The notes under the pieces are model-generated. The model made no database searches, was not told the origin of the DNA, and saw only the letters and a program-made list of their open reading frames with translations. Below, piece after piece: positions 29,885 to 55,038 of a DNA stretch of 64,000 nt (positions within the stretch are counted from its first letter, which is position 1; every line of letters begins with the position of its first letter). A program made the position numbers and the translations under genes. The stretch spans positions 1,646 to 65,645 of the forward strand of contig LGFX01000004.1 of the NCBI GenBank assembly GCA_001508335.1, read 5' to 3'. Origin of the DNA: a candidate division TA06 bacterium 32_111. Lineage in GTDB: Bacteria > Hydrothermota > 32-111.

Positions 29885-29892
29885 TTTTCCTA

Positions 29893-29920
29893 TTGACTTT
29901 TTTAATTTTTTGTTTATATT
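29893..29920 (+). promoter_or_regulatory. Putative sigma70-type promoter of the Rrf2-nifS-nifU operon
   Basis: TTGACT (29893-29898), a 16-nt spacer, then TATATT (29915-29920), 19 nt upstream of the ATG. Confidence 0.35.
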
Positions 29921-29938
29921 ATACTAAAAAGGTGTAAT

Positions 29939-30337
29939 ATGAAAATAACAAAAGAACTCGAATGTGTTATCGCAACATTAACAGCACTGGGAAGAAATAA
30001 AGGAAAATATCTCTCTCTAAACGACATAGTAGAGATTACAAATTTTTCAAAACCGTTCACAAGAAAGATAGTTGCAAAAATTTTAAAACTCGGTTATATC
30101 AAAAGCGAAATGGGACCACAGGGAGGGTATGCTCTAAATGATGGAAGCACAAAAATATCCCTGAAAAAACTTGTTGAAGATATTGAAAACAGAAAAAGGT
30201 TTGTTGAATGTTACAATTCAAAATCTTGTATAAGTAAAAAAAAGTGTATAATAAGTAATAGCATGAAAGATCTAAACAGACAACTTGATAGGGTACTTGA
30301 GAGTTTCACTATAGAAAATTTTATAAAAGGAGAATAA
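29939..30337 (+). CDS. Rrf2-family transcriptional regulator (IscR-like)
   Basis: Winged-helix N-terminus (LSLNDIVEITNFSKPFTRKIVAKILKLGYI), a C-terminal Cys cluster (CYNSKSCISKKKC), and a position directly upstream of nifS-nifU. Confidence 0.75.
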   Translation: MKITKELECVIATLTALGRNKGKYLSLNDIVEITNFSKPFTRKIVAKILKLGYIKSEMGPQGGYALNDGSTKISLKKLVEDIENRKRFVECYNSKSCISKKKCIISNSMKDLNRQLDRVLESFTIENFIKGE

Positions 30338-31501
30338 ATGAAAAAGAAATTCATTTATCTTGATAACAATGCTACAACAAAAGTAGATGATAGGGTTGTA
30401 AGCGAGATGCAGAGATATTTTACAGAGGTTTATGGTAATCCTTCCTCTCTTTACGATCTTGGTCAGGAAGCGAGAAAAGCGATAGAAAATGCAAGAGAGA
30501 GGGTGGCAAAAATTTTAAATTGTAACCCTTCAGAAATCTATTTCACAGGCTCTGGAACCGAATCTGACAATTTAGCCATAAAAGGTGTTGCCAGAAGGTA
30601 TCAAAAGAAAGGTAAACATATAATAACTTCAGCAATAGAACATCATGCTGTTTTGCATACGGTTGAATATTTAGGCAAAAAGGAAGGATTCGAATACTCT
30701 CTTGTTAAAGTTAACAATGATGGAATAGTTGATCTTGATCATCTTAAATCGCTTATAAGGGATGATACAACACTTATTTCTATAATGTATGCAAACAATG
30801 AAACTGGTGCAATACAACCTATAGAAGAGATAGGAAAGATAGCGAAAGAAAGGGGAATCTATTTTCATACCGATGCAGTTCAGGCAGCAGGAAAGTTATC
30901 TCTTGATGTGAAAAAGTTGAATGTGGATATGATGTCCCTTTCAGGACACAAATTCCATGCTCCCAAAGGTGTTGGGATTCTTTATAAGAGAAATGGAATA
31001 AATCCTATACCTTTATTCCATGGTGGGCATCATGAGAAAAATCTAAGACCTTCAACCGAAAATGTCCCATATATTATGGGAATAGCGAAAGCACTCGAAA
31101 TCGCTTACGATGAATTCGAAGAGCACAAAGAAAAGATTTATAAACTCAAAATGATGTTAAAGGAAGGCATTGAAAAGAATATAGAAGGGATAGTTTTGAA
31201 CACTCCAGAAAATAGTGTTTTCAACACTCTGAACTATTCTTTCAAGGGAATTGAAGGTGAGTCTATACTTTTTTCTCTGAACGATTTTGGAATAGGAGTA
31301 TCAACAGGTTCAGCATGCACATCTGGTAGTCTTGAACCAAGCCACGTTATTATGGCTATGGGAAGGGACCATGCTATCTGTCATAGTTCCATAAGATTTT
31401 CATTAAGTAAATATAACACGGAAGATGAAATCAGATATACTATAGAAAAACTTAAAGAAGTGATTGATAGGATAAGAAGAATATCACCGTATAAACAGTA
31501 A
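30338..31501 (+). CDS. nifS: Cysteine desulfurase (NifS/IscS type)
   Basis: IYLDNNATT, the PLP lysine motif SLSGHKFHAPKGVG and the active-site loop STGSACTSGSLEPSHV. Confidence 0.9.
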   Translation: MKKKFIYLDNNATTKVDDRVVSEMQRYFTEVYGNPSSLYDLGQEARKAIENARERVAKILNCNPSEIYFTGSGTESDNLAIKGVARRYQKKGKHIITSAIEHHAVLHTVEYLGKKEGFEYSLVKVNNDGIVDLDHLKSLIRDDTTLISIMYANNETGAIQPIEEIGKIAKERGIYFHTDAVQAAGKLSLDVKKLNVDMMSLSGHKFHAPKGVGILYKRNGINPIPLFHGGHHEKNLRPSTENVPYIMGIAKALEIAYDEFEEHKEKIYKLKMMLKEGIEKNIEGIVLNTPENSVFNTLNYSFKGIEGESILFSLNDFGIGVSTGSACTSGSLEPSHVIMAMGRDHAICHSSIRFSLSKYNTEDEIRYTIEKLKEVIDRIRRISPYKQ

Positions 31502-31510
31502 GGAGATTTT

Positions 31511-31894
31511 ATGTACAGTGACAAAGTAATGGAACATTTCAGAAATCCTCACAACTATGGAAAGATGGAAAATCCTGATGGTGTTGGAAGAGTTGGTAAT
31601 CCTCAGTGTGGAGATGAAATGGTAATTTATATTAAAGTTGAGAACGATGTAATAGTTGATGTGAAGTTTGAAACTTTTGGATGTGTTGCTGCAATTGCAT
31701 CTTCATCGATAACCACAGACCTTATAAAAGGAAAAACTATAGATGAAGCGTTGAAGATAACAAACAAGGATGTTGTTAATCAACTTGGAGGGTTGCCGGC
31801 TATAAAAACACACTGTTCTGTTCTTGCTGAGGATGGAATAAAAGCAGCAATTGATGATTACCTTAAAAAGAAGAAAGAGAAAGAGCAGAACTGA
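31511..31894 (+). CDS. nifU: Fe-S cluster scaffold protein (NifU N-terminal/IscU type)
   Basis: GNPQCGDEM, FETFGCVAAIASSS and HCSVLAEDG, the three conserved Cys motifs. Confidence 0.9.
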   Translation: MYSDKVMEHFRNPHNYGKMENPDGVGRVGNPQCGDEMVIYIKVENDVIVDVKFETFGCVAAIASSSITTDLIKGKTIDEALKITNKDVVNQLGGLPAIKTHCSVLAEDGIKAAIDDYLKKKKEKEQN

Positions 31895-32667
31895 TGGAAA
31901 AAGATTTTGAAAAGGTAGTAAGAGTTGTAAAAAAACTTAGAAAAGAATGTCCCTGGGATAAAAAACAGACCCATAAATCTTTAAGAAGATTTGTTGTTGA
32001 AGAATCATATGAACTGGTTAATGCTATAGATAAAAAAGATAAAGATAAAATTGTTGATGAACTTGGAGACATTTTACTTCAGGTTATTTTACATTCAGCA
32101 ATAGGAGAGGAAAAGGGAGAATTTACTTTAAAGGATGTTCTAAAAAACCTTGAAAAAAAATTGAAAAGAAGGCATCCCCATATTTGGGGAGATGTTAAAG
32201 TAAAAAATGAAAAGGATGTTTTAAAAAATTGGGTTGAGATAAAGAGGAATGAAAAAAATCATAAATCTATAATGGATAACATTCCAGTATACCTTCCATC
32301 ACTCATTCTGGCTTACAAAGTTCAGAAAAAGGCTTCAAGTAAAAGGTTTGAATGGGAAAAGGTTGATGATGTTTACGAAAAACTTTATGAAGAGATAAAA
32401 GAGTTAAAAAAAGCAAAAAATGTGAATCAAAGAGAGGATGAAATAGGAGATATTTTTTTTACACTCGTTCACCTTGCAAACAGATTACAAATAGATTCTG
32501 AGTTATCTTTGAGAAAATCTGCGATAAAATTTGCAGAAAGGTTCAAAAGGATGGAAGAAATGGTTATAAAGGATAAAAAAAATTTTGAAAGTTTATCCAT
32601 TGATGAACTTGATAAATACTGGAATAAAGCGAAAAAGAGTTTAAAAACTAACAAATCTGTAGAGTAG
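31894..32667 (+). CDS. mazG: MazG nucleoside triphosphate pyrophosphohydrolase
   Basis: LRKECPWDKKQTHKSLRRFVVEESYELVNAI...ELGDILLQV, plus a second MazG repeat. Confidence 0.9.
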   Translation: MEKDFEKVVRVVKKLRKECPWDKKQTHKSLRRFVVEESYELVNAIDKKDKDKIVDELGDILLQVILHSAIGEEKGEFTLKDVLKNLEKKLKRRHPHIWGDVKVKNEKDVLKNWVEIKRNEKNHKSIMDNIPVYLPSLILAYKVQKKASSKRFEWEKVDDVYEKLYEEIKELKKAKNVNQREDEIGDIFFTLVHLANRLQIDSELSLRKSAIKFAERFKRMEEMVIKDKKNFESLSIDELDKYWNKAKKSLKTNKSVE

Positions 32668-33579
32668 CAAAATTGAAATTGCTATAGAGAAAGGTGAGAG
32701 TAAAAAAGAAAAAAGTATGAGTTGGTTTGAAACTATCTTGTTTCCCCCATTTCTTTCAACTAAAATAGGTAAAGCTGTTATAGGTGGAACGGCAAGTTGT
32801 AGTAAAATAATAATAGAGAGATTTTTCGGAAGTTTTAGAAAATAAAGTATCAAAATTGATGTGAAAGGGAAGACAAAATTTTTAATAAGAACGAATGGTA
32901 TAATAGTTTTTAAATAAAATTTTTTTGAGTTTTTTAAATCTATATAAATATTCCCACCAAGAATCAAAATTAAAAGCGGAATAGACATAGAGCCAACCAT
33001 TCTTGATGCATTTATTACAAAAGATGGAACCAACTTTGAAAATCCCAACAACTTTAAAATTATACCTAACAAAGTTGCTATAAGAACAGGATGGAATGTT
33101 TTTAAAATGTTCAATTTTTCAGTTTTACCATGAAAAAAGAATGAAAATGAGTTAAAAAGGAATGCAGCGTAGAAGATCATAAAAAGAAAAAGATCCGTTT
33201 TTAAAGATAAGAATGATTGTACTGTTGAAAATATAGCGAGTGGAAAGAAAATTCCATTTTGGAAAAGAAGTGAAACAAAAAATTCTTTGCGGTGTTCTTT
33301 AGGGGAGAGAAATTTACCAAGGTAAGAAAGTACAAATATAAAAATCGTTGTTCCAATCCAATAAAGTGGATAAAGGTACCAATCCTTCTGTTGTGAAGGT
33401 TCAAATTTTGTTAAAATATCTGAAAAAATCATCAAAGGTAAAGAGATTTCAAGAGATAGAGTTGAAAGAATGGAAAAAATATTTTCATTTAAAAATTTTC
33501 TGTAAAGTAAGAAAAATCCCAAAAAACCTATTGCGAGTAAACCTAAAACTGCACTGAAGGTTGACCAGAAAATGTCCAT
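32641..33579 (-). CDS. AEC (auxin efflux carrier) family transporter
   Basis: A 312-aa polytopic membrane protein with about 10 TM segments and a typical AEC length and layout. It converges on mazG with a 27-nt overlap. Confidence 0.6.
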   Translation of the reverse strand: MDIFWSTFSAVLGLLAIGFLGFFLLYRKFLNENIFSILSTLSLEISLPLMIFSDILTKFEPSQQKDWYLYPLYWIGTTIFIFVLSYLGKFLSPKEHRKEFFVSLLFQNGIFFPLAIFSTVQSFLSLKTDLFLFMIFYAAFLFNSFSFFFHGKTEKLNILKTFHPVLIATLLGIILKLLGFSKLVPSFVINASRMVGSMSIPLLILILGGNIYIDLKNSKKFYLKTIIPFVLIKNFVFPFTSILILYFLKLPKNLSIIILLQLAVPPITALPILVERNGGNKIVSNQLILFSFLLSPFSIAISILLLYRFVSF

Positions 33580-35676: not shown

Positions 35677-35775
35677 AAAAACTTTCTGTCTAACCCCCGG
35701 GATTTTTGCTCTACCATAGATAGACAGAAAAATCTTGACTTTTTGCTTAATTAAGTATATATTTTAACTAAATTT
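35677..35775 (+). promoter_or_regulatory. CRISPR leader, conserved 99-nt block (copy 1) with an inverted repeat and promoter
   Basis: Identical to 54940..55038. It contains the 10-bp inverted repeat TTTCTGTCTA (35683-35692) / TAGACAGAAA (35721-35730). It also contains TTGACT (35735-35740), a 17-nt spacer, then TATATT (35758-35763). Confidence 0.75.
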
Positions 35776-35803
35776 ACAATGATAATCTCGTATTCTCCAT
35801 GGC

Positions 35804-37626
35804 GTCTTAATCGCACCATTTGTGGTATGGAAACAGATTTCCACCTGTCTCTTTCGCTATAAATTTGATTACCGTCTTAATCGCACCATTTGTGGTATGG
35901 AAACTTATTGAGATGGAGTGGATCTCGTAATAGAGATCCCTCTGTCTTAATCGCACCATTTGTGGTATGGAAACAGCTCGAGAATTTGATTTTTTCAATA
36001 ACATGTTTACCCGTCTTAATCGCACCATTTGTGGTATGGAAACCCTTGTTGCTTCTGCAACTAAACGGGAAACTATATATACAGTCCGTCTTAATCGCAC
36101 CATTTGTGGTATGGAAACTCATCTGGGTATGATTTCTCGATATTGCCTTCTGTCTCTTTTGCGTCTTAATCGCACCATTTGTGGTATGGAAACTTTCTGA
36201 CTGCTGGACCAGGAATGAGTAAGTCATCTCGTCTTAATCGCACCATTTGTGGTATGGAAACATCTCTGGTAAACTTATTAAATATTTGTCATTATAAGAA
36301 TTAGCGTCTTAATCGCACCATTTGTGGTATGGAAACGAGTCGATTGCTTCGATGTCATCACTTATCTCTGTGAAGTCTTAATCGCACCATTTGTGGTATG
36401 GAAACCCGACAGCTTTAATAACTTCTTTTACAGGCTCACCAGTTGAGTCTTAATCGCACCATTTGTGGTATGGAAACCCACCATTTATATTCAATCTTGT
36501 CTTGATTTCTACATAACGTCTTAATCGCACCATTTGTGGTATGGAAACAAGAACGCCGTTCTTGATTTAGTTTTAGACTACAGAGGTCTTAATCGCACCA
36601 TTTGTGGTATGGAAACCCACGTTTACCAGCATCACAGTATATCTCTGTGATTTTCTGTCTTAATCGCACCATTTGTGGTATGGAAACATTCCATCTATGG
36701 ACCCAATAGTCACCACTTGCTGGGTACACCTGGGTCTTAATCGCACCATTTGTGGTATGGAAACATCACATAGTTCTTCGCTTTCCCATGTTGTGCTACA
36801 TATTTCGGTCTTAATCGCACCATTTGTGGTATGGAAACGCGAGAGCGGCTGCTCGTCTTCTCTCTTTCTCTTCGGCCCAGTCTTAATCGCACCATTTGTG
36901 GTATGGAAACTTATCCCCTCTCAAATAATATAATCCATCTTTCAATCTTACGTCTTAATCGCACCATTTGTGGTATGGAAACTGGATTTTAGGGGTTATT
37001 ATTTGAAGAAATATAAGTCTAAAGTCTTAATCGCACCATTTGTGGTATGGAAACGAGAGTTTTCTCTCCAACCTCCTTCTTTTATCGGAGAGAGCCCAGG
37101 TCTTAATCGCACCATTTGTGGTATGGAAACTCATATTCATTTTGTGAGTATAATCTAATAGTGTAGCCGTCTTAATCGCACCATTTGTGGTATGGAAACA
37201 TTGATATCATTTTGTAAGCATCTCTTCTTATTTTAGAAGTCTTAATCGCACCATTTGTGGTATGGAAACTCTATTTGCTCTCATAAAAAATGCGGGGAAA
37301 TCCCGCATAGTCTTAATCGCACCATTTGTGGTATGGAAACCTATCGATATCCAGTGGTCCACAGAGAAGATGAGTGGGAACCCCCGTCTTAATCGCCCCA
37401 TTTGTGGTATGGAAATGCCAACTCATGTGCTACTGACCATCCAACTTTGTCTCTTAGTCTTAATCGCACCATTTGTGGTATGGAAACTATGGCCACCAAG
37501 AATTTCACAAACGGACGCTATGATTTGTCTTAATCGCACCATTTGTGGTATGGAAACATCCTCAATGTTGCCGTTAATAATAAATTTTACAAAGTGTCTT
37601 AATCGCACCATTTGTGGTATGGATAA
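35804..37626 (+). CRISPR. CRISPR array 1: 26 repeats of 31 nt and 25 spacers (37-46 nt)
   Basis: The repeat is GTCTTAATCGCACCATTTGTGGTATGGAAAC. Repeat starts: 35804, 35874, 35944, 36013, 36088, 36163, 36231, 36306, 36375, 36447, 36518, 36586, 36657, 36734, 36808, 36880, 36952, 37024, 37100, 37169, 37239, 37310, 37386, 37457, 37527, 37596. The repeat at 37386 carries 2 substitutions, and the last repeat is degenerate at its 3' end (…GGATAA). Orientation is + because the leader/promoter is upstream, the degenerate repeat is distal, and the 3' ATGGAAAC is a Cas6-type 8-nt handle. Confidence 0.97.
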
Positions 37627-37768: not shown

Positions 37769-37796
37769 TTGACAAAATATATTTTATTGGTATTAT
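37769..37796 (+). promoter_or_regulatory. Putative sigma70-type promoter of the accessory/csm operon
   Basis: TTGACA (37769-37774), a 16-nt spacer, then TATTAT (37791-37796), about 45 nt upstream of the GTG at 37840. Confidence 0.4.
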
Positions 37797-37839
37797 TTTA
37801 TATGTTTTATTTTTAAGTAAACATTAAAAAAGGATATTT

Positions 37840-38850: not shown

Positions 38851-39690
38851 ATGACTATGTTTGTTGAAATAACTGATTTTGAAAAATATATACTAAGCAA
38901 ATCTGGATACTCTTTTAAATTTGATAAAAATAAAAGTGAAATTTATGAAAAAAAGATGATAAATATCCTAAAAAAATATTATACAGGTAATGTAAAAGTG
39001 AAAGAAAATAGCCTCTATTCAATTTACAACCCACTTTTAGAATCGAAACCAGCCCATCTTATCTTTGTAAGAGAAATTTTAAATGATAAGGTTTTAATAC
39101 ATCCAGAAAGTGAGATCAAACAAGGAATTTCCGTATATTCAAAAAAATTAAAAATGAATTTAATTTTGGATTCAAATTTTATAGAATTACCATTAATCGC
39201 TTTAAAAAATGCTATATTTATTGAAACTTTAAAAATTCCGAGATTTAATACTGCGGTTCTAATTTGTGATATATTCAAAAAAGTTGACGATGATAATTTT
39301 TCTTTAATTTCTCCTTTTCTACATTTAAAAGAGATAGCAGAGAACTTAACACAACATAAAGAGTTTTTATGGGAAATACCTTATTTTATAACAAGACCAA
39401 TCTTTACTGCTAAATTAAAAAGAACAAGTAAAAACCTTATTTTAAGTAAATTATCGGAACTTCAAAATTTTAAAGAGATAAAATTTAATGATGGAAGTAT
39501 TATATTGCTTAGTCATGAAGATGAAAAAGTAAAATATGAGATTATTAAAGGGAAATTCAAAATAAACGGAAAGGAATCAAAGCAAAAAGGCGAGATATTT
39601 GCTTTGCATGATAAAAGTTCAAAAATTATCAGAATCGAATCCGTAAAAAGTGGAGAGAATATAGATGTTAAAATTAGAGTTGGCGAATGA
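38851..39690 (+). CDS. Hypothetical 279-aa soluble protein (candidate anti-sigma or protease substrate)
   Basis: The ORF has RBS GAGGTG upstream. I recognise no motifs and no TM segments. It lies 18 nt after the sigma-like gene and overlaps the Lon-like/TPR gene by 26 nt. Confidence 0.4.
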   Translation: MTMFVEITDFEKYILSKSGYSFKFDKNKSEIYEKKMINILKKYYTGNVKVKENSLYSIYNPLLESKPAHLIFVREILNDKVLIHPESEIKQGISVYSKKLKMNLILDSNFIELPLIALKNAIFIETLKIPRFNTAVLICDIFKKVDDDNFSLISPFLHLKEIAENLTQHKEFLWEIPYFITRPIFTAKLKRTSKNLILSKLSELQNFKEIKFNDGSIILLSHEDEKVKYEIIKGKFKINGKESKQKGEIFALHDKSSKIIRIESVKSGENIDVKIRVGE

Positions 39691-41410
39691 AGAATATTTA
39701 CACTATCTTATAAATTATAATAACTTTAATCATGCTCAATCTGTTATTAAAAAACTTATATTGAATTCAAAAACAGATAAAGTAATAAATAAACTTAAAG
39801 AGATTGAAGAAATACTTAAAAAATCAAAAGAGATTACAACAAAAATATTTGCACCTATAGTTGTAAGTAATAATGGAAATGAATATCCATTTCTTTTCCC
39901 GATAGAATTATATTATAAGAACAATGAAACAGTTTTGTATGGCAAGGATATATCACAGATTATAAAAAAGGCTGTTATTGTTGTTGAAAATTATTTTGCA
40001 GAAAAGGGAATAATTGTTGATTTAAACCCAAACAAATTTTATTTAAACAACTTAGAAGAGATTGAAAATATTTTCGTTCTGGATTGTAACTCTATGGAAT
40101 TATCTGTTGCTGTTGCTCTTTATTTTTTAATTTTAAACAAAAATCCAGAGAAAATATTGTGTTTAACTGGTGGACTTGATTTCAACGGAAATATTTTAAA
40201 TGTTGATAACATAGAGCAAAAAAAATTCGCAGTAAAAAGCGAATTTAAAGATGGTTTTTTGTTTTCAAGTAATGAAAATATTAATATTAAAACTTTTTCA
40301 AATTTCGTAAAAAATGTTCTTAAACCAAAAGATGAAATTGTTGACAGCAAATTTTTGGGAAACAGTAATAGAATGATGACCATTGCAGATATGTATTTTT
40401 TAAAAGGTGATTTTGAAAATTATCTTCCAATTTATAAGAATTTAGAATTGTATCTTACAAACAAAAAAGATGTTAAATCAAAAAATATTTTGTTCATAAC
40501 TCTAATGAGATTAGGTTGGCATTATAGTCATTCTGGTGATTTAAAAAAGGCTGGAATTTACTATGAAAAGGCAAACAAGTTAAAAATGAATTTGAAAAAT
40601 GAAAATATATTTGAATATAACAGTGATTCTATAGAATTTAACAATGTCTATGCTGTTTATTTAAAAGATGTATATGAGTATCAAAAAGGTTTAAAAATAC
40701 TTAAAGAGAATTTGAGAGAAAAAAATAACTCAGGCAGACATATTTTGATATCAACAAGAGGCACTCTTGCTCAATACTATATTCATAGTAAAAATTATAA
40801 AAATGCAAAACAATATTTACAAAATAATTTATTGGAATGTAAAAAATATATGTTATCAGATGTATCAAGAACTTATTGTTATCTTGCAAAACTTTCAACT
40901 TTAACAAGAGATTTTAAAAACTCGAAAAAATATATTATTTTAGCAAAAAAGTACACAAAGTATACAAATGAAAAGATACAAAAAATATTTATAGATTTTG
41001 AAGAATTAAGATTGTACTCTTATATGGAAAATACAAAAAAATGTAAAGAACTACTAAATAAATTAAAAAAAGATTCTGAATATACACCATTTGTTTACAT
41101 GTATTTTCTTGGAATAGAACTTTTAGCTAATTCCTATTTAATGAAAGATAAAGAGAAATCAAAAAACTTGATGCTAAAGTTCTTTTTATCTATGAAAGCA
41201 CAAAAAAAAGAAGATTATTTATTATTTGGAATAAGAGGTTTGATTAATTATTACTTAACTTACAAAGATTTTGATGTTTATTCAATAATCGAAGAAAATT
41301 TAAAAAATTTAAAGATGTTTAAACAATATTTTCAAAAGTATCTTGTTTTAGACTTAAAAAATAACATAAAATCTTTAAAAGAAATGATGGAGAGTATAAA
41401 CTTAATATGA
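39665..41410 (+). CDS. Lon-like (S16-type Ser-Lys) protease domain fused to a C-terminal TPR array, CRISPR-associated
   Basis: Residues ~135-200 read VLDCNSMELSVAVALYFLILNKNPEKILCLTGGLDFNGNILNVDNIEQKKFAVKSEFKDGFLFSSNE. This parallels the Lon proteolytic core (DGPSAG...MTGEITLRG.VL.IGGLKEKLLAA). Residues ~240-581 carry repeated TPR-like signatures (GDLKKAGIYYEKANKL, KNYKNAKQYLQNNL, RDFKNSKKYIILAKKY). An ATGA overlap joins it to cas6. Confidence 0.55.
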   Translation: MLKLELANEEYLHYLINYNNFNHAQSVIKKLILNSKTDKVINKLKEIEEILKKSKEITTKIFAPIVVSNNGNEYPFLFPIELYYKNNETVLYGKDISQIIKKAVIVVENYFAEKGIIVDLNPNKFYLNNLEEIENIFVLDCNSMELSVAVALYFLILNKNPEKILCLTGGLDFNGNILNVDNIEQKKFAVKSEFKDGFLFSSNENINIKTFSNFVKNVLKPKDEIVDSKFLGNSNRMMTIADMYFLKGDFENYLPIYKNLELYLTNKKDVKSKNILFITLMRLGWHYSHSGDLKKAGIYYEKANKLKMNLKNENIFEYNSDSIEFNNVYAVYLKDVYEYQKGLKILKENLREKNNSGRHILISTRGTLAQYYIHSKNYKNAKQYLQNNLLECKKYMLSDVSRTYCYLAKLSTLTRDFKNSKKYIILAKKYTKYTNEKIQKIFIDFEELRLYSYMENTKKCKELLNKLKKDSEYTPFVYMYFLGIELLANSYLMKDKEKSKNLMLKFFLSMKAQKKEDYLLFGIRGLINYYLTYKDFDVYSIIEENLKNLKMFKQYFQKYLVLDLKNNIKSLKEMMESINLI

Positions 41411-42135
41411 GATTGGAAGTAGTTTTAATAAACGAGGGGATTAAATCCATACCTTTGAATTACCAGTATTATTTGACTTCTGCTATTTATAAAGCATTGG
41501 GAGAGAGTGATAAAGAAATTGCAGAAAAAATTCATGATGAAGGTTTTGGAGATAAAAAAGGGTTCAAATTTTTTACCTATTCTTTTTTGAAAGGTGATAT
41601 TTTTAAAGTAAAAGATAATGATCTTTATATGGAAGAAGGTATTTTTAAATGGTTTATTTCATCTCCAATACATTCTTTAATTAAAATGATATATGAAAGT
41701 TTTTCAAAAGATGGATTTGTTGAAATAAAGCATGAAAAATTTAAAATTGAAAGGCTATCATTTAAAGGTAATCCTTCTTTTAGAAAAGAGGAAGAATTCA
41801 TCTGTAATTCACCAGTAGTTGTTACAAAACAGTATGAAAATGGCAGAGTGGAGTACCTTTTTAGAGTTGATGATGAATTCAATATTAGAATCAATAATAA
41901 TTTAGCAAGAAAATATGAGATTCTTTTTGGTGAAAAATATGAAGGTGATGGAATAAAAGTTATTTCTAAAAAACAATATCCTATGACCAAACTTGTAAAA
42001 TATAAAAATATAAAAATAAAAGGAATTTATGACAATTTAATGATTGTTGGGGATACCGATTTGATACACTTAGCCTATGATACTGGTTTAGGAGAAAAAA
42101 ATTCTATGGGTTTTGGAATGATTGAAAAAAAATAA
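41407..42135 (+). CDS. cas6: Cas6 CRISPR repeat endoribonuclease
   Basis: A 242-aa RAMP protein with the C-terminal glycine-rich loop GLGEKNSMGFGMIE. Its position upstream of cas10 is typical. Confidence 0.85.
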   Translation: MRLEVVLINEGIKSIPLNYQYYLTSAIYKALGESDKEIAEKIHDEGFGDKKGFKFFTYSFLKGDIFKVKDNDLYMEEGIFKWFISSPIHSLIKMIYESFSKDGFVEIKHEKFKIERLSFKGNPSFRKEEEFICNSPVVVTKQYENGRVEYLFRVDDEFNIRINNNLARKYEILFGEKYEGDGIKVISKKQYPMTKLVKYKNIKIKGIYDNLMIVGDTDLIHLAYDTGLGEKNSMGFGMIEKK

Positions 42136-42151
42136 TTTTATAGGAGTAAAT

Positions 42152-44560
42152 ATGAATAAAAAAGTTATTTATATTAGCTCATTGCTTCATGACTTAGGTA
42201 AGTTTTTGGAAAGAAGTAAACAGTACGTAAATAATTATATCAAAAATAAGTATTCTGATATTAGGTATTCTCATCCACGTTACTCCAAATTTTTTGTTGA
42301 ACAACTTTCCAAAAAAATAGATTGGTTATCAATAGAAGAATGGGAAAATATCTCTAAAATTGTTGGTTACCATCATCAACCTAATGATTTTGATACAAAA
42401 ATTATCCAATTAGCAGATTGGTTAGCTTCAGCAGAAAGAGAAGAACAAGAATTAGAAGAATTTAATTATATTAATGATAAATTAGAATCGATTTTTTCTA
42501 ATATGTCTGATTACAATGAACAATATGAATACGATATATCTGTTTTAAATTTTGATAATATGATGCCAATGTTTGAATTTAATTGCGAAATTAATAGATA
42601 TATTGATATTTTATCAAAATTTTTAGAAGATATTGGAAAAGTTAGGGATGAAGAAGAAGTTTTGTTTATCCTTGAAAAATATTGTTCTTATATACCAGCT
42701 CAAACTCGGCAATACAGATCAGATATTTCATTATATGATCATAGTAAGTTAACAGCTGCTATCGCAATATGCTTGTTTAATGAAAATAAAAATGGTTTTA
42801 TCGATAATGCTAAAATAGATAAAATTATTCAAGAATTACAAAAAATGATGGAATTTAAGAAATTTAATAAGGATCAAGATAATTCTGATTTTAAAGAAAA
42901 TCTTTTAACATATTTAGAGGATAAACTACTAGATGAACATTTTATTTTGATTAAAGGTGATATTTCCGGAATACAAAAATTTATTTTTAATGTCCCATCC
43001 AAAAAGGCTGCAAAAAGTTTAAAAGGTAGATCGATATATATTATGCTTCTTACTCAATTAATAGCACAATATATTATTGATCAACTTAATTTAACGAAAA
43101 GTAATATTTTATATTGTGGTGGAGGTAATTTTTATATACTTTCACATAAAAGTGCAGAAAATAAATTAAAAGAAATAGAAAAAAGAATTATGCAGTTACT
43201 TTTTAAACACCATGAAGAAAAGTTGTCTTGTAATATCGGTTATGTTTCAATGAAAATAGGGGATTTTTTGTTGTCTGAAAAAATTTGGAAGGAAAGTTCA
43301 AATGAAGTAAATAGAAAAAAATTGACAAAATTTAATTACATTTTAAAAGAAGATTTTAATAAATTATTTTTACCAACTGATATATCAAAATCTATTCAAA
43401 CTTGTGATATTTGTAAAATGGAAATAAAAGAAAAATCAACAGAAAAAGAAAGTGATTCATTAGAAATTGTTCTTTGTGATATGTGCAATTCTTTTATTTC
43501 TTTAGCTGATGAATCAAAGAATGCAAAAAGTATAATTATTTCAAAAAAGACAAATTCTGAAGATAACAAGAATACTTATAAGAGTATTTTTAATGAACTT
43601 GGATATGATATAAAATTTTCAAATGATTCTCATTCATCTTCTAATCTAATTAACGTCTATAAAATAAATGATTTTGATTCTAACAAATGGATTTTAGGTT
43701 CTTTTTATTTACCTAATAAAACTTTTGATGATCTTGCGGATAAAAATAAAATCGCATATTTAAAGCTCGATGTTGATAATTTGGGTACTATTTTTGGAAA
43801 AGTTAAAAATCCTTCACTTTCAAGAATCTCGACCCTAAGCAGACAATTAAATCTATTTTTTGAGTACTATTTAATAAAACTTGTAGAAAAAGAAAACCTA
43901 CAAGAAGATTTATATATAGTGTTTTCCGGTGGTGATGATGTGTTGGTAATAGGTCGATTAAAAAAATTGTTTGATTTTTCCTTAAAACTCAGAGAAAAAT
44001 TTAAAATTTTCACGGCTGAAAACCCAAATTTAACTTTTTCTGCTGCATTAGGAGTATTTGATGTTGACTTTCCAGTAATAAATGCAATTTACGAGATGGA
44101 ACATTTATTGAAAAAATCAAAATCCATTATTTACTATGATGAAAAGGATACAATCAAAATTCCACGAAAGAATAAAATTACTATTTTTAATCAGCCATTT
44201 TCATGGAAAGAACTTGAATATATTAAAGAATTGTATGATAAATTGTACAATTTTATTGATCAAAATAAAGAAAATAAAAGAAGTATCCTTAGAAAAATAC
44301 TATTAGCCTCAGAGAAATACAATCCTCTAATAGATGGTCCAAAAGGAAATGAAATCAACAATCAGAAAATATGGAAAATGAGATATTATCTTCGTAATAT
44401 AAAAGACAAAAAAAACCTAAAGCAGAAAGAAGAAATTATTGATATATATGAAAAAATGTGGTTGAAAAATTATTATTTTTCAGATGAAAAACCAATAAAA
44501 AATCATCAAATTTTAAATGTTGCAGCTAAAATACTTGACCTTGAAATAAGAAAAAAATAA
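42152..44560 (+). CDS. cas10: Cas10/Csm1, type III-A large subunit (HD and GGDD motifs intact)
   Basis: HD domain SSLLHDLGKF...YHH. Zinc-finger cysteines CDICK...CDMCNSF. Palm/cyclase motif YIVFSGGDDVLVIG. I prefer the ATG at 42152 (RBS TAGGAG) to the TTG at 42122, which lies inside cas6. Confidence 0.92.
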   Translation: MNKKVIYISSLLHDLGKFLERSKQYVNNYIKNKYSDIRYSHPRYSKFFVEQLSKKIDWLSIEEWENISKIVGYHHQPNDFDTKIIQLADWLASAEREEQELEEFNYINDKLESIFSNMSDYNEQYEYDISVLNFDNMMPMFEFNCEINRYIDILSKFLEDIGKVRDEEEVLFILEKYCSYIPAQTRQYRSDISLYDHSKLTAAIAICLFNENKNGFIDNAKIDKIIQELQKMMEFKKFNKDQDNSDFKENLLTYLEDKLLDEHFILIKGDISGIQKFIFNVPSKKAAKSLKGRSIYIMLLTQLIAQYIIDQLNLTKSNILYCGGGNFYILSHKSAENKLKEIEKRIMQLLFKHHEEKLSCNIGYVSMKIGDFLLSEKIWKESSNEVNRKKLTKFNYILKEDFNKLFLPTDISKSIQTCDICKMEIKEKSTEKESDSLEIVLCDMCNSFISLADESKNAKSIIISKKTNSEDNKNTYKSIFNELGYDIKFSNDSHSSSNLINVYKINDFDSNKWILGSFYLPNKTFDDLADKNKIAYLKLDVDNLGTIFGKVKNPSLSRISTLSRQLNLFFEYYLIKLVEKENLQEDLYIVFSGGDDVLVIGRLKKLFDFSLKLREKFKIFTAENPNLTFSAALGVFDVDFPVINAIYEMEHLLKKSKSIIYYDEKDTIKIPRKNKITIFNQPFSWKELEYIKELYDKLYNFIDQNKENKRSILRKILLASEKYNPLIDGPKGNEINNQKIWKMRYYLRNIKDKKNLKQKEEIIDIYEKMWLKNYYFSDEKPIKNHQILNVAAKILDLEIRKK

Positions 44561-44570
44561 GGAGGAAAAA

Positions 44571-45122
44571 ATGTTAAAAGGAGTAGTAAAAACTATCAAA
44601 GATACAGGTTATGCTATTGTAACAAGTGAAAATGCAGATTATTTTTGCCGTGCTTATTTAGTTAGATCTAATAATTTGAGTGAAGGTGACCAAATAGAAT
44701 TTGAATTTCAAGAGAATAACAAACCAGGGGAAAAACCATCAATTACTAATTTAAGAATTATTTCTAAAGCTCCACGAAAAGAAAATGTTTATGATTATGC
44801 ACTAATAATTGATAAATTATCAGCAGAACAATATGATAAATTTTGTAACCTAATGAGAAGGTATGTTAAAAGTGATGATTTTAGAAAAATAACAACAAGT
44901 AAATTAAGGAATATATACAATTTGGTTAAAAAGGTGACAGATAAAAAAGGATGCAAAATGATTAGACCTAAAATAGCTTACTTAAAGGGAAGAGAACCTG
45001 ATACAAAGAAATTTATGGAAGATTTAGATAATCTTATTTCTAAAATTGATTCAAAAGAAGAAGTAAAAAGTTTTAAGGAATTTTTTGAAGCTCTTATTTG
45101 TTATGCAAAAGAAATAGAATAA
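44571..45122 (+). CDS. csm2: Csm2 (Cas11 small subunit) with an N-terminal cold-shock/OB-like extension
   Basis: The C-terminal ~115 aa are Csm2-like (ITTSKLRNIYNLVKKV...IRPKIAYLKGREP...FKEFFEALICYAKE). The N-terminal ~65 aa follow a CSD pattern (GVVKTIKDTGYAIVTSENADYFCRAYLV...LSEGDQIEFEF...ITNL). Confidence 0.75.
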   Translation: MLKGVVKTIKDTGYAIVTSENADYFCRAYLVRSNNLSEGDQIEFEFQENNKPGEKPSITNLRIISKAPRKENVYDYALIIDKLSAEQYDKFCNLMRRYVKSDDFRKITTSKLRNIYNLVKKVTDKKGCKMIRPKIAYLKGREPDTKKFMEDLDNLISKIDSKEEVKSFKEFFEALICYAKEIE

Positions 45123-45133
45123 GGAGGTAATAA

Positions 45134-45880
45134 ATGAAATTAATTAAAAAAGTTTTCATTGAAGGTAAAATTCAACTTTTAACAGGATTACATATTGGAG
45201 GTTCGTCAACTGCTTTCGATATAGGTGGAATAGATTCGAATGTTATAAAAACTTCGAATGGGATTCCTTATATACCAGGTTCATCAATAAAAGGAAAAAT
45301 GAGATCTTTAATGGAAATGAAAATGTCTAAATTTACACAAGAAACAGGAAAAGTTGATAGTAATAATAAGGAAAATTCATCAAAAGAAATCCAGAATATA
45401 TTTGGTTCAATGGCTGGTGGAAATACTATCACTAGATTAATTGTAAGAGATTCATTTTTAGATAAAGAAACTTTAGAAGCAATGATAGAAAAAGAGGGAG
45501 AGTTTAATCAATTAGAATTAGAATATACAGAAGTTAAATGGGAAAATACTATAGACAGATTGACTGCAAAAGCAAATCCAAGACAGTTAGAAAGAATTCC
45601 AGCTGGAGCGAAATTTGATTTTTCATTTGTATTTACAATGTATGATGAAAATGATAAATCTCTTCTAAAATATCTCTTTGAAGCTATGATGTTACTTGAA
45701 GATGATTATTTGGGTGGTTCAGGAACAAGGGGGTATGGTAGAATTTGCTTTAAAGACATAAAAGTTTCAGAGAAAACTGCTAAAGATTACGAAGAAATAA
45801 AGCCTGAAAAATTGTTAAAATATGAAGCACCAACATTAAAGGAATTAGTTAAATTGGTGGTCAATTATGAAGATAAATAA
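45134..45880 (+). CDS. csm3: Csm3 (Cas7 backbone RAMP, target-RNA cleaving subunit)
   Basis: GLHIGGSSTAFDIGGIDSNVIKTSNGIPYIPGSSIKGKMRSL and the C-terminal motif GGSGTRGYGRI. Confidence 0.92.
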   Translation: MKLIKKVFIEGKIQLLTGLHIGGSSTAFDIGGIDSNVIKTSNGIPYIPGSSIKGKMRSLMEMKMSKFTQETGKVDSNNKENSSKEIQNIFGSMAGGNTITRLIVRDSFLDKETLEAMIEKEGEFNQLELEYTEVKWENTIDRLTAKANPRQLERIPAGAKFDFSFVFTMYDENDKSLLKYLFEAMMLLEDDYLGGSGTRGYGRICFKDIKVSEKTAKDYEEIKPEKLLKYEAPTLKELVKLVVNYEDK

Positions 45881-46901
45881 ATTAATTGTTCCATTAAATA
45901 ATTCTTACTATGTTAATGAATTACCTATTCACTCTACAACTTTATTTGGAGCTTTAGCAAATTGCTATGTTAAATTGTATGGAGAAAATAGCTTTAATGA
46001 TTTTCTTGCGATTTTTGAGGGCAATGATGCAAAAATATCGTCAGTTTTTCCATTTATTAGAACAAAAGAAAAGGATTTACTGTTTTTTCCAAGACCCTTA
46101 ATCCCTTACAGATCAAAAGATCGAGAGAACACCAATATAAACAGAAAAAAACTGGATTCTATAAAATGGGTTTCTATGGGTGTTTTAACTAAATTATCAG
46201 AAAAAATAATAAAAATCAATGGTCAATTATATCATGAATTTGATTATCTAAATGAATGTGATTCTTTAAGTGATAATTTTCTAATTTTACAAGATGAACT
46301 CTCAAAAAATGATAAAGAGGAAATTAATAATAATTTGAAAATTGAAGAAAATGTTAAAACAAATGTATTAACAAATAGAATTGGCTTAGAAAATAATATG
46401 CCTTTTAAAATTAAATGCTATAGATTTGTAAATAGCAATGAACTTTCAAAAAAATATTCAATCAATATGTTTTTTTTAGAAGAATGGATTGAAGAAGATA
46501 AAAAATGGATCGCATCAAAAAACTTACTTATAGATGAAGGTCTTGGAGGAAAAAAATATATTGGAGGGGGACATTTTATAGATATTACGACAACAGAATT
46601 TGCAATTGAAAAAGATGAAAATAATGAATATGGAATATTATGCTCTGCTTTTATTCCAAGTGATGTTTTATGTTTAGATAAAATCGTATACTATGATTTA
46701 GGATACGACAGTGGATATATTACATATTTTTTACCAACTAAAATGAAGAAAAGCAAACTTTATTATTTCAAGGAGGGATCAGTAGTTAAAAATGGTATAA
46801 AAGGTAGTTTGATAAAACAAAATTATTATAATAAAAAAATTGTTAGATATGGAAAAGAATATATATTACCTTTAGGAGGTAAAATCAATGAAAAAGTATA
46901 A
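45867..46901 (+). CDS. csm4: Csm4 (Cas5-family RAMP)
   Basis: N-terminal STTLFGALANCY and the glycine-rich loop DEGLGGKKYIGGGHF. The gene order supports the call. Confidence 0.85.
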   Translation: MKINKLIVPLNNSYYVNELPIHSTTLFGALANCYVKLYGENSFNDFLAIFEGNDAKISSVFPFIRTKEKDLLFFPRPLIPYRSKDRENTNINRKKLDSIKWVSMGVLTKLSEKIIKINGQLYHEFDYLNECDSLSDNFLILQDELSKNDKEEINNNLKIEENVKTNVLTNRIGLENNMPFKIKCYRFVNSNELSKKYSINMFFLEEWIEEDKKWIASKNLLIDEGLGGKKYIGGGHFIDITTTEFAIEKDENNEYGILCSAFIPSDVLCLDKIVYYDLGYDSGYITYFLPTKMKKSKLYYFKEGSVVKNGIKGSLIKQNYYNKKIVRYGKEYILPLGGKINEKV

Positions 46902-47946
46902 AATAACTACTTTAACACCTATATTTATACAAGGAGATAATTCAAAAAATCTTTCAATATTTACAGATTTTATTTTATCAGACAATTTTATAAATATAAT
47001 TGATAAAAGGGATTTAGAGAATATTTTTACTGAGAATGAACATCTATTAAATATATACATGAAAGAAGTTGAAAAAGGGACAAATCTTCAGGATTTTTTT
47101 AAAAAAAACAAAATAGATATAGAAAAAATCAGAATAATAAAATCTATCCCCTATGATAAAGAACATTTTTCTGGTAACGAAATTTTAACTTTTGTTTCAG
47201 TAAATGGTAAACCTTATATACCTGGATCTTCTCTTAAGGGAGCAATAAGAACAACATTTTTTAAATTTTTAGAAGATACTCTTAATACAACAGTTAGCGA
47301 AATTACTTATGAAAGAAGAGTTAATTTTAATAATATTGAGAAAAGACTTTTTCCTAAAATTGAAAAAAAGGATTTATTTAGTTTTTTAAGCATTTCAGAT
47401 AGTAATCCATTTAAAAGTACAGATTTATTTATAAAAAGTGTTAAATCGGTAAATATTTTTAATCAAAGACATGAAGAGGGAATTCCTATAAACATTGAAT
47501 GTATTAAAGAGAATTCAACAACAGAATTCTCTATAGATATTAAAAGAGTATCTAATATGAAAAATAATAAAATATTATTAAATGCAGAAACGTTATATGA
47601 AGCGATAAATCATTTTTCTAAAATTCAAATTGTTAAGGAACTTGAAAAATTACCCAAGGAAAATCTTTTTTTAGAAACAAGAAATTTTTATGAATCTATT
47701 TTAAAAGAAATTGAAAATAATGAAAATAAGAAAATTTTTATTAGAATTGGAAAGTATACTGGTATTTTATCTAAAACAATCTTAAACCTATTAGATCAAA
47801 ATGTTAGAATTAATTTTATCAAAAATAATTTTAAAAATTTTAAAGAAAATAATGAAAAATTTTTTCCAAAATCAAGGTTGAAATACTATATAGGAGAAAA
47901 AGAAAGGTTTGACTTTGGTTGGATTGTTATGGAGGAGATAAAATGA
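46888..47946 (+). CDS. csm5: Csm5 (Cas7-family RAMP)
   Basis: GKPYIPGSSLKGAIRT and a C-terminal GKYTG...FGW motif. The gene order supports the call. Confidence 0.85.
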   Translation: MKKYKITTLTPIFIQGDNSKNLSIFTDFILSDNFINIIDKRDLENIFTENEHLLNIYMKEVEKGTNLQDFFKKNKIDIEKIRIIKSIPYDKEHFSGNEILTFVSVNGKPYIPGSSLKGAIRTTFFKFLEDTLNTTVSEITYERRVNFNNIEKRLFPKIEKKDLFSFLSISDSNPFKSTDLFIKSVKSVNIFNQRHEEGIPINIECIKENSTTEFSIDIKRVSNMKNNKILLNAETLYEAINHFSKIQIVKELEKLPKENLFLETRNFYESILKEIENNENKKIFIRIGKYTGILSKTILNLLDQNVRINFIKNNFKNFKENNEKFFPKSRLKYYIGEKERFDFGWIVMEEIK

Positions 47947-49301
47947 ACAAGGCAAAGCTTATATTTGTTACTCTTGGCCGCAGAGATTTAAGTATCGATG
48001 ATAATAATGAAGATAAACCACCGAGAGAAAAAGGCAGATATATTTTAGATAATTATAATACACTTAAACATAAATTATCATTAAATATTTTAGAAAAATT
48101 TCTTTCAAACGAATTGTCAAAAGAAAGTGAACAAAAAAGGTTATTTATTTTTGCTACAAATCAGAAAGACCCTAATTTTAATAAAGATGATACTATTTTT
48201 TATGCTAAAGTAATAGAAAAACTACTCTACGAAAAATATAACAAGAATAAAAATTTAATTATAGAAATTATTGAAATAAAAGAAAATTTGGAACATTTAG
48301 ATTTTCTCTATGATTTTTTAAAAAAAACACTTAATAATAAAATTTCGATAATAGAAAAAAAATATGAAATAGAAAATGTAGCTTGTGCCTTGAAGGGCGG
48401 AATTCCAGATGTAAATTATTCAATCTTACTTTATTTGATTTTTAAGTTTAAAACCAAGTTGAAACACTTTAACATTATGGAAGAAAAAAATAGAAAAAAA
48501 TCTTACAATTTTTATCTTTTAAATTTTAGTAACGAAATTTGGAGAGATATTGAGAGAGAAAAAGTTTTAGAATACATTGAAAGTTTTAATTATCTTGAAA
48601 TAAAAAAGAATTCTTCCAATTTTTATGTTCAAAATTTAGCAGAAACAGCTTTCAATCTTTTTTCATTTAATTTAGATGAAGCAAAGAGAATTAGAGAATA
48701 TGAAATTAAAGATATTGAAAGAGATTTTGTTTGTGAGATTCTAAAATATTTAGAACAAATAGAAGAGGATGAAAAAAATATTTTAAGAGAATTGTATTTT
48801 ACAATATGGATTTTAATTCAAAAGAAACATTTCGCCGATGCCTTATCAAGATTATATAATTTTACTGAAAGAATTTTCTTGTTTGAGTTATCAAAAATTA
48901 CAAAGGAAGAAAAAAAATTTAATGACATTGTTAGAAAATGGGACTCTATAATTGAAGAATTAATAAAAAAATATCCCGAAATAGCTGAAAAAAAAGATAA
49001 TATTGATGTTAAAAAATATAGTATACCAACTTTATCGAAAATTTTAAGTATAATAAAAAAAGATGAAAGTGAATTTTTAGAAATTTTAAAACAACTCGAA
49101 AAAATATGTAAAATTAGAAATAATTCAATTGTTGCACATGGAACAACTGGAATTTCAGAAGAGAAATTAAAGGAACAACTTGAAAATACAAATATTATAG
49201 AAATCTTAAAAAATATTGAAAAATATTATGATTTTAATTTTGAAAATTCATTATATACAAAAATTAATAACAAAATTAAATTTTTATACGAAATAAAATA
49301 A
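47943..49301 (+). CDS. csm6: Csm6-family CARF-HEPN ribonuclease
   Basis: The N-terminus is Rossmann-like, CARF-type (KLIFVTLGRRD...FATNQKD...ALKGGIPDVN). The C-terminal HEPN motif is CKIRNNSIVAHGTTG (Rx6H). The ATG at 47943 overlaps the csm5 stop (ATGA) and follows RBS GGAGGAG. Confidence 0.75.
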   Translation: MNKAKLIFVTLGRRDLSIDDNNEDKPPREKGRYILDNYNTLKHKLSLNILEKFLSNELSKESEQKRLFIFATNQKDPNFNKDDTIFYAKVIEKLLYEKYNKNKNLIIEIIEIKENLEHLDFLYDFLKKTLNNKISIIEKKYEIENVACALKGGIPDVNYSILLYLIFKFKTKLKHFNIMEEKNRKKSYNFYLLNFSNEIWRDIEREKVLEYIESFNYLEIKKNSSNFYVQNLAETAFNLFSFNLDEAKRIREYEIKDIERDFVCEILKYLEQIEEDEKNILRELYFTIWILIQKKHFADALSRLYNFTERIFLFELSKITKEEKKFNDIVRKWDSIIEELIKKYPEIAEKKDNIDVKKYSIPTLSKILSIIKKDESEFLEILKQLEKICKIRNNSIVAHGTTGISEEKLKEQLENTNIIEILKNIEKYYDFNFENSLYTKINNKIKFLYEIK

Positions 49302-53449: not shown

Positions 53450-53719
53450 ATGTATGTGATTGTTGTTTATGATATAAATGAAAAAAGAGTTGCAAAATTT
53501 CATAAGTTCTTAAAAAGATATCTGATTTGGGTTCAAAGATCAGTTTTTGAGGGAGAATTGACAGAATCAGAGTTAAGAAGTATAAAAAATTTTTTTAATT
53601 CAAATTGTAAATTATCAGAAGATAGTATGATAATTTATTTTATTAGAGATAAAAAATGGATTTACAGAGAACTCCATGGCATCGGACTAAAACCTGAAGA
53701 TATGGATAATTTTTTATAA
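53450..53719 (+). CDS. cas2: Cas2
   Basis: MYVIVVYDINEKRVAKFHKFLKRYLIWVQRSVFEGEL. The track start is the GTG at 53441. I prefer the ATG at 53450, which follows RBS GGAG. Confidence 0.9.
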   Translation: MYVIVVYDINEKRVAKFHKFLKRYLIWVQRSVFEGELTESELRSIKNFFNSNCKLSEDSMIIYFIRDKKWIYRELHGIGLKPEDMDNFL

Positions 53720-54939: not shown

Positions 54940-55038
54940 AAAAACTTTCTGTCTAACCCCCGGGATTTTTGCTCTACCATAGATAGACAGAAAAATCTTG
55001 ACTTTTTGCTTAATTAAGTATATATTTTAACTAAATTT
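54940..55038 (+). promoter_or_regulatory. CRISPR leader, conserved 99-nt block (copy 2)
   Basis: Identical to 35677..35775, with TTGACT at 54998-55003 and TATATT at 55021-55026. It begins 48 nt from the divergent J-domain gene start. Confidence 0.75.

Follow-up and report, generated by a model that had tools for sequence, protein, structure and literature searches.

The window analysed here, 64,000 nucleotides of contig LGFX01000004.1 (positions 1,646 to 65,645) from the candidate division TA06 bacterium 32_111, carries an intact type III-A CRISPR locus with its own cyclic oligoadenylate (cOA) receiver, and within that locus we observe a three-gene module (Table 1) whose last gene encodes a protease in which a Lon proteolytic domain is followed by a long superhelix of tetratricopeptide repeats (TPR). 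By its fold and its Ser-Lys dyad, this protease is a member of the Lon-fold superfamily (MEROPS S16), while falling below every curated Lon threshold; its copy at NCBI is annotated "hypothetical protein". The two genes that precede it encode a putative sigma factor and a 33 kDa orphan protein, an arrangement that recalls the CalpL/CalpT/CalpS system, with Sulfurihydrogenibium sp. YO3AOP1 and Ca. Cloacimonas acidaminovorans as reference organisms, in which cyclic tetra-adenylate (cA4) on the SAVED domain of the protease CalpL leads to self-association, cleavage of CalpT in trans, and release of CalpS (PMC11417357; bioRxiv 10.1101/2024.05.08.593097). We judge the chances to be about even that the protease described here is part of a three-protein, CRISPR-linked transcription switch built in the same way. 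The functional inferences in this proposal and below are drawn from sequence comparison, structural models, and the order of genes at eleven loci, most of them metagenomic.

A word-indexed search returned three close relatives of the protease (86-98% identity), and when residues 1-240 were used in an exhaustive HMMER search of 1.84 billion cluster representatives, only seven proteins were recovered, six of them clear matches (572-589 aa, 27-41% identical), none of which is functionally named. The family is therefore very rare. The seventh protein, P0010 (752 aa, matching the N-terminal domain at E 2.8e-5), was rejected as a family member, as it aligns poorly, lacks the residue corresponding to S143, and has no Pfam domains. 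It does appear to hold two copies of the N-terminal Lon-like region together with a hydrophobic N-terminal segment, and it keeps the Lys that aligns to K186. The family profile and alignment used below comprise ten clear members. The window protease is rich in Lys, Asn, Ile, and Tyr, as is the surrounding low-GC region (~24% GC). Among papers accessible without subscription, we did not find a TPR-Lon architecture described, and those naming CalpL or a Lon protease together with TPR refer to TPR only as the TPR-CHAT protein Csx29; nor is the architecture described in the available portions of a 2018 accessory-gene survey, a 2024 effector survey, and a 2025 classification. A search of the viral structures in BFVD returned only generic TPR proteins of giant viruses.

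On sequence comparison, the likeness to Lon is beyond chance, though it is evident only at the level of the family. As a single sequence, the protease matches the NCBIfam LonB model TIGR00764 at E 6e-4 (18.5 bits against a cut-off of 516.6), the Pfam Lon-like family ChlI at E 0.13, and, in the PDB, the Lon protease domain of M. jannaschii (1xhk) at E 0.02. With the profile of the ten-member family, the match to 1xhk reaches E 2.3e-7, and the LonB domain of A. fulgidus (1z0e) is matched at E 7.7e-6. An earlier note on this DNA, made from the sequence, had proposed a Lon-like core that might be checked against the Pfam Lon_C profile and against other Lon-like domains; the single-sequence Pfam search gave no Lon_C match for the window protease (its relative P0005 carries a weak precomputed one), whereas the comparison of the family profile with LonB domains bears the proposal out. 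In that profile alignment, S143 is paired with the Ser of IDGDS/VEGDS in 1xhk and 1z0e, and K186 with the Lys of NEK/TQK; going by published structure descriptions, these residues form the catalytic dyad of the two enzymes. Neither S143 nor K186 varies among the ten family members, and the same is true of E145, G169, and G175, even though distant members share only 22-44% identity in the Lon region; K187 is variable.

The numbering of the earlier note, with the Ser at 143, the KK pair at 186/187, and 43 residues from S143 to K186, is correct; the 53-residue segment that it quoted begins at residue 138, and the CNSME motif at 141. The alignment results also narrow its catalytic-type Ser/Lys pair to K186 rather than K187, and the degeneracy that it had remarked in the GPSAG motif extends to the family, whose consensus at this site is LDCxSxEL.

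Structure prediction leads to the same fold. When an AlphaFold2 model of residues 1-236 (pLDDT 86.9) was searched with Foldseek, the best 50 matches were all Lon, RadA Lon-like, or CalpL structures, which places S143 and K186 within a Lon-fold domain, as the earlier note had expected of a structural model. The best match was again 1xhk (E 2.5e-5, 19-20% identity), and CalpL itself (7qda) was matched at E 6.2e-4 over 256 aligned columns with 17% identity. The full-length AlphaFold2 model, built from the ten-sequence alignment (pLDDT 89.3, pTM 0.84), consists of three helices (residues 3-53), an alpha/beta domain (61-220), and sixteen further helices (234-577).

These sixteen helices form about eight hairpins, so that the at least six TPR-like hairpins counted in the earlier note were an understatement. 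The region is matched by the Pfam families ComR_TPR (27.0 bits against a cut-off of 26.5), TPR_2, and TPR_12, and the best 50 Foldseek matches of the full-length model are TPR proteins only, namely LGN/Pins, APPBP2, MalT domain III, Rap, and NprR (E 1.6e-4 to 4e-4 for Rap 4gyo and NprR 4gpk). Searches of the protease with Pfam, NCBIfam, PADLOC, and Foldseek found neither a SAVED nor a CARF domain. A SAVED or CARF domain hidden in the C-terminal half can be ruled out, as residues 234-577 are all-helical and match only TPR families and structures, and the claim that no such fold lies downstream of the Lon domain therefore stands.

The protease is accompanied by the same partner genes in other genomes. 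The ten related loci that we compared comprise two WOR-3 metagenome-assembled genomes (L001 and L002), one such genome labelled Gammaproteobacteria (L003), two metagenome contigs with 88-89% identity (L004 and L005), and five contigs with distant members (L006-L010). An orthologue of the 279-aa protein is encoded directly upstream of the protease in all ten (hidden Markov model (HMM) matches, E 1e-17 to 1e-139), and the sigma-like gene is found by HMM upstream of the 279-aa gene in all eight loci whose contig extends that far. The HMMs of these upstream proteins also match in five loci that were absent from HMM building (E 1e-11 to 1e-47). The reading frames of the 279-aa protein and the protease overlap by 17-26 nt across the loci (26 nt in the window). 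On the other side of the protease, cas6 is the next gene in nine of the ten loci, with 52-61% identity. The exception is L009, where a gap of 185 nt is followed by a STAND-like NTPase (2723-3496; NPHP3_N, nSTAND3, and NB-ARC), at which the contig ends. A partnership specific to Cas6, suggested by the adjacency and higher conservation of cas6, is weakened by this NTPase.

With moderate confidence, and from sequence comparison, we assign the 330-aa protein as a divergent extracytoplasmic function (ECF)-like sigma factor. The window protein matches the NCBIfam sigma70-ECF model TIGR02937 at E 6e-5, under the cut-off, and six of its eight orthologues match the same model, the best at E 1.6e-10. 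Its C-terminal helix-turn-helix (HTH) matches Sigma70_r4_2, GerE, and LuxR-type HTHs, and in the alignment an insert of ~100 residues separates the sigma-2-like from the sigma-4-like part. Searches of the PDB with the sigma-like profiles gave only weak matches to HTHs of the LuxR/GerE type. An element similar to the promoter-like site before the module, TTGACAAAATA, is found in L004 and L005. A special sigma-dependent promoter before the module or the arrays was considered and discarded, as only ordinary sigma-70-like hexamers were seen.

The 279-aa protein is an orphan: neither its single sequence nor its profile matches anything in Pfam, NCBIfam, PADLOC, or the PDB, and a search of 5.8 billion proteins with its profile recovered only its own family. 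The PADLOC defence models match none of the three module proteins. The alignment of the 279-aa family shows an invariant W174 and I176, a short linker, a helix, and then a beta-rich C-terminal region of ~75 residues. Positions 187-188, in the linker, are occupied by a small residue, [A/G], and then by [K/S/A]. At 33 kDa, the protein equals CalpT in size (PMC11417357). CalpT is cut after an Ala in LAAA to give a 24 kDa N-terminal and an 11 kDa C-terminal fragment (bioRxiv 10.1101/2024.05.08.593097), and by analogy, a cut near residue 187 of the 279-aa protein would give CalpT-like fragments. The co-inheritance of the sigma-like and 33 kDa genes strengthens the analogy to CalpL beyond that of a single protein.

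In the mechanism that we propose, the 279-aa protein would hold the sigma factor inactive and would itself be held by the protease. On a signal, which would come in via the TPR domain, the Lon site would cut the 279-aa protein, possibly in the small-residue linker near residue 187, into two products (about 22 kDa and 11 kDa). Release of the sigma factor would follow, perhaps after more of the inhibitor has been degraded, and transcription would be altered during infection.

Several observations weigh against this proposal. The protease is tied to the 279-aa protein and the sigma factor by synteny only, and the 279-aa protein has no detectable similarity to CalpT, anti-sigma factors, or any other protein. 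For the window protein, the sigma assignment lies under the curated cut-offs, and its HTH fits LuxR/GerE equally well. The NTPase in place of cas6 in L009 suggests that the link to CRISPR may not be obligatory. Finally, the GPSAG motif of Lon is replaced by CxSxE in a protein that remains under all curated Lon thresholds, RadA domains are among the fold matches, and inactive Lon-like domains exist. These last points would also fit a different explanation, in which the Lon-like domain is dead and the protein is a TPR adaptor, such as a partner switch or a regulator of cas operon expression, that sequesters or releases the sigma factor without proteolysis. Such a role has a parallel in TPR regulators of the RRNPP group such as Rap and NprR, which work by binding and not by cleavage, and the RadA-type domains that are inactive are close matches in fold. 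We nevertheless consider a dead domain quite improbable: the divergence of the Lon region has left untouched both the Ser and the Lys that align to the active Lon pair, and the neighbouring E145, G169, and G175 are invariant too. Our preferred reading remains a protease that is predicted to be active on Ser143 and Lys186.

The conservation of the TPR domain suggests that it is the regulatory part of the protease and that it has a conserved ligand. Between distant pairs of family members, mean identity is higher in the TPR region (38.9%) than in the Lon region (30.8%) or the N-terminal helices (27.3%), and 42 of the 62 invariant positions in the family lie within residues 240-524. The invariant polar residues of the TPR region include N259, N274, R282, K307, E317, N319, E324, N326, N327, and D335, and, further along, E352, K353, T364, T367, Q370, D399, R402, E446, R449, and R524. 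From the helix starting at residue 397 onward, the invariant residues fall on helices 397-413, 436-453, 478-491, and 516-533, with none on helices 417-429, 457-471, 496-512, and 536-547. Such an alternation is what would be expected of a ligand groove lined by one helix per hairpin. In the closest fold matches, the TPR groove holds an extended peptide (LGN/Pins, APPBP2, Rap, and NprR) or, in the case of MalT domain III, a small ligand.

As this pattern of conservation and these structural neighbours are best fitted by a peptide or protein trigger, we rank first, with low confidence and somewhat short of an even chance, the binding of an extended stretch of peptide or protein in the TPR groove. 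This stretch could belong to one of the partner proteins, or it could be a host or phage peptide, as in receptors of the Rap/NprR/ComR type. No small propeptide gene is apparent beside the protease, where neighbouring genes overlap or are 18 nt apart and leave no space for one, although no dedicated search for small open reading frames (ORFs) was made.

The cassettes that follow the module bear on the other possible triggers. The module fronts a type III-A cassette in the window and III-D-like cassettes in L001, L002, and L010, where there are no csm genes after cas6; in L001, we observe a short Cas10, Csx10, and Csx7. The Cas10 proteins of the three III-D-like loci are 490-500 aa long and lack the HD domain. 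The GGDD motif is present in the Cas10 of the window and of L001, while a simple pattern search for GGDD in the Cas10 of L010 gave no match. In L001 (13964-16339) and L010 (13839-16196), we also note an ORF that adjoins a Cas02710 CARF-HEPN gene and that has a partial match to type VII Cas14 (E 1.5e-57, below the cut-off). When window positions 27012-47946 are compared with L001 positions 1-21740, the upstream flank (27012-33579) is collinear with 64-94% protein identity. The window thus derives from a relative of WOR-3, and the CRISPR locus occupies one chromosomal site in both. At this site, the array, the sigma gene, the 279-aa gene, the protease, and cas6 are kept, while the effector cassette is III-A in one and III-D-like in the other, an apparent swap of cassettes behind a constant cas6 and repeat. 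Identity is far lower in the module proteins (29-31%, 35-38%, and 47-48%) than in the flanks.

One alternative retains the same switch and makes the TPR domain a non-canonical receptor for a nucleotide made by Cas10 (cyclic tri-, tetra-, or hexa-adenylate (cA3, cA4, or cA6), or the S-adenosylmethionine-AMP conjugate SAM-AMP), the binding of which would make the protease self-associate and cut in trans, as CalpL does. In function, the protease would then be an ordinary CalpL whose sensor has been exchanged. In keeping with this, a Cas10 and a CARF effector (Csx1 or TIGR02710) lie beside the module in every sufficiently long locus, and the TPR domain is conserved with either type of cassette, III-A or III-D-like (the window and WOR-3 copies are 53% identical), as would fit an invariant small ligand. 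CalpL, too, usually co-occurs with other cA4 effectors, and there are type III messenger sensors beyond CARF and SAVED (PMC11229360). Sensors of cOA in type III systems are, however, nearly always CARF or SAVED proteins (PMC12669027). The invariant polar residues, moreover, are spread over at least five hairpins (259-449), which is more than a ligand of ~1.3 kDa should need, and the failed GGDD search in L010 also counts against a Cas10 product. Binding of a cyclic oligonucleotide is, to our knowledge, not known for any TPR domain. We consider this explanation, in its full form, rather unlikely; the narrower statement that the trigger is a nucleotide produced by Cas10 and recognised by the TPR domain is unlikely, to a slightly lesser degree.

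Another alternative takes type III-E as its model, where the TPR-CHAT protein Csx29 sits on Cas7-11, is activated by the 3' end of the target RNA crossing its TPR, and cuts Csx30, the inhibitor of CASP-sigma (PMC10028731). Here, the TPR domain would dock the protease on the Csm or III-D complex, and the target RNA, perhaps through its unpaired 3' flank, would switch the Lon site allosterically and without a diffusible messenger. At the start of the effector operon, translation of the protease gene is indeed coupled to that of cas6, and the repeat, and hence the tag of the CRISPR RNA, is almost identical across the CRISPR-linked loci checked. Docking is disfavoured, however, because the TPR domain is highly conserved across very different effector cassettes, from Csm with an 812-aa HD-Cas10 to III-D-like RAMPs with a Cas10 of 490-500 aa that lacks HD; that no other part of the protein is as conserved is hard to square with a subtype-specific docking surface. 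Furthermore, Csx29 is not among the best 50 structural neighbours of the full-length model, and, in contrast to III-E, an active cyclase and CARF effectors are retained in these loci. This Craspase-like scheme as a whole is, in our estimation, quite improbable, and as triggers alone, docking on a target-bound effector complex and the lack of any regulated trigger each seem improbable.

Whichever the cue, we lean against the broader notion that the TPR-Lon protease is switched on without a cyclic nucleotide, its conserved TPR groove directly reading either a peptide or protein that is produced or becomes exposed in the course of infection or a Csm or III-D complex bound to target RNA, and hold it to be doubtful. 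If true, the protease would be a messenger-independent, Lon-type counterpart of Craspase in multi-subunit type III systems that contain Cas10, and the locus would have a second signalling branch, independent of a messenger, beside that of cOA and Csx1.

Table 1. Coordinates of the TPR-Lon module, its parts, and the neighbouring features of the CRISPR locus (positions within the window).
Feature	Position	Strand	Remarks
Radical SAM protein, 605 aa	33769-35586	+	Directly upstream of the array 1 leader; no counterpart there in L001
CRISPR array 1	35804-37626	+	26 repeats of GTCTTAATCGCACCATTTGTGGTATGGAAAC, the last degenerate; directly upstream of the module
Sigma-70-type promoter-like site before the module	37769-37800	+	TTGACA, spacer ~17, TATTAT; read by eye
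Divergent ECF-like sigma factor (moderate confidence), 330 aa	37840-38832	+	Sigma-2-like N-terminal part, ~100-residue insert, C-terminal sigma-4/LuxR-type HTH
Orphan protein, 279 aa (33 kDa), candidate inhibitor and substrate	38851-39690	+	Last 26 nt overlap the protease start
Residues 183-190 of the 279-aa protein, candidate cleavage site	39397-39420	+	Linker motif [F/V/A/T]-[A/G]-[K/S/A]; from the alignment
TPR-Lon protease gene	39665-41410	+	581 aa, ATG start; third gene of the operon
Protease residues 1-55, N-terminal three-helix domain	39665-39829	+	Invariant Y11, L15, N20
Protease residues 56-225, Lon proteolytic-domain fold	39830-40339	+	Profile against PDB, Foldseek
S143 codon, predicted catalytic Ser	40091-40093	+	Aligned to the Lon catalytic Ser; invariant 10/10
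K186 codon, predicted catalytic Lys	40220-40222	+	Aligned to the catalytic Lys; invariant 10/10, also in the doubtful P0010
Protease residues 234-577, TPR superhelix, 16 helices	40364-41395	+	AlphaFold2, Pfam, Foldseek
cas6	41407-42135	+	Start overlaps the protease stop codon (ATGA)
cas10/csm1	42122-44560	+	TIGR02578, E 1.6e-156; 812 aa; HD motif and GGDD cyclase motif
csm2, csm3, csm4, csm5	44571-47946	+	Pfam for csm2 and csm5; csm3 and csm4 by position, translations, and conservation in L004
Csx1-type CARF-HEPN effector	47919-49301	+	PADLOC Csx1, E 4.3e-41; Pfam Csm6 HEPN
DUF3800 protein, 675 aa	49378-51405	+	N-terminal DUF3800 (E 6.9e-5), long helical C-terminal part
Cas4, Cas1, Cas2	51963-about 53720		Named from ORF translations
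392-aa protein	53714-54892	-	DnaJ J-domain, glycine zipper, C-terminal membrane segments; between cas2 and array 2
CRISPR array 2	55085-56325	+	18 repeats; repeat and ~100 bp leader as in array 1

In the remainder of the window locus, the Csx1-type protein is the canonical cOA receiver. The layout of an array followed by the module, with a repeat that differs by 0-2 mismatches, is also seen in L001, L002, L004, and L005. The leaders of the two window arrays (35678-35790 and 54941-55050) are near-identical over ~100 bp and share a palindromic CCCCCGGG core and a promoter-like site, TTGACT-N17-TATATT. Csm2 (44571-45122, + strand) is 183 aa long, but the Pfam Csm2 match covers only residues 97-180, and its N-terminal extension of ~90 residues, which is unassigned, appears beta-rich by eye. 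The DUF3800 protein encoded between csx1 and cas4, which has no PADLOC match, is 95% identical to its copy in L004, compared with 72-87% for Csm2-Csm5.

When compared to known systems, the protease most closely recalls CalpL. In both, a Lon domain without an ATPase follows a short N-terminal helical domain, and the comparison drawn in the earlier note is upheld by the position of the dyad, 143/186 here, at nearly the same distance from the N-terminus as S152-K193 and S154-K195 in CalpL (bioRxiv 10.1101/2024.05.08.593097), as well as by the presence of CalpL among the fold matches. Both are encoded in type III CRISPR loci alongside CARF effectors, and both have an ECF-like sigma gene adjacent, a likeness to CalpS that is one of sigma family membership only, by TIGR02937. 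Unlike in CalpL, a TPR superhelix of 350 residues takes the place of SAVED, such that the cA4-binding, filament-forming, and ring-nuclease functions of the latter have no counterpart, and the Lon domain is closest in sequence to archaeal LonB domains. The partner proteins also differ, as they match no solved structure by sequence, including the CalpT10 chain of 8B0U, and the sigma factor has an insert of ~100 residues that sets it apart from CalpS. As the defining SAVED domain is absent, the protease is not a member of the CalpL family, although the module probably follows a CalpL-like logic of protease, inhibitor, and sigma factor.

Like Craspase, the protein joins TPR to a protease and is encoded in a type III locus next to genes for a sigma factor and an inhibitor (here a candidate), and, by our reading, its TPR domain would likewise receive the signal. 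It is not a homologue of Csx29, from which it differs in protease class (a Ser-Lys Lon fold rather than the Cys-His, caspase-like CHAT), in domain order (protease first, TPR second), and in effector context (multi-subunit III-A and III-D-like loci with Cas10 rather than Cas7-11). The TPR superhelix itself resembles that of the RRNPP receptors (Rap, NprR, and ComR) and of MalT domain III in shape (Foldseek E 2e-5 to 6e-4), and, as in the RRNPP receptors, conserved polar residues run along the repeat array; unlike those receptors, it is joined to a Lon protease rather than an HTH or phosphatase domain, and it is found in a CRISPR context rather than in quorum sensing. For the Lon domain, archaeal LonB proteins (1xhk and 1z0e) provide the best sequence and fold matches over residues 88-235, with the catalytic Ser and Lys aligned, whereas the AAA+ ATPase module and the membrane anchor of LonB are missing and its GDSA motif is replaced by CxSxE.

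Two protease-to-sigma switches of type III systems have been characterised: CalpL, in which Lon is combined with SAVED and responds to cA4, and Craspase, in which CHAT is combined with TPR and responds to target RNA on Cas7-11. The TPR-Lon family joins the protease class of the former to the sensor class of the latter in III-A and III-D-like loci that contain Cas10, which raises the question of what a TPR domain would sense where cyclic oligoadenylates are produced in any case. If the protease is active, CRISPR-linked signalling from protease to sigma factor would have been put together on three or more occasions out of exchangeable parts, and a substrate-specific protease that answers a peptide, protein, or RNA cue would be of interest to tool builders, as Craspase was.

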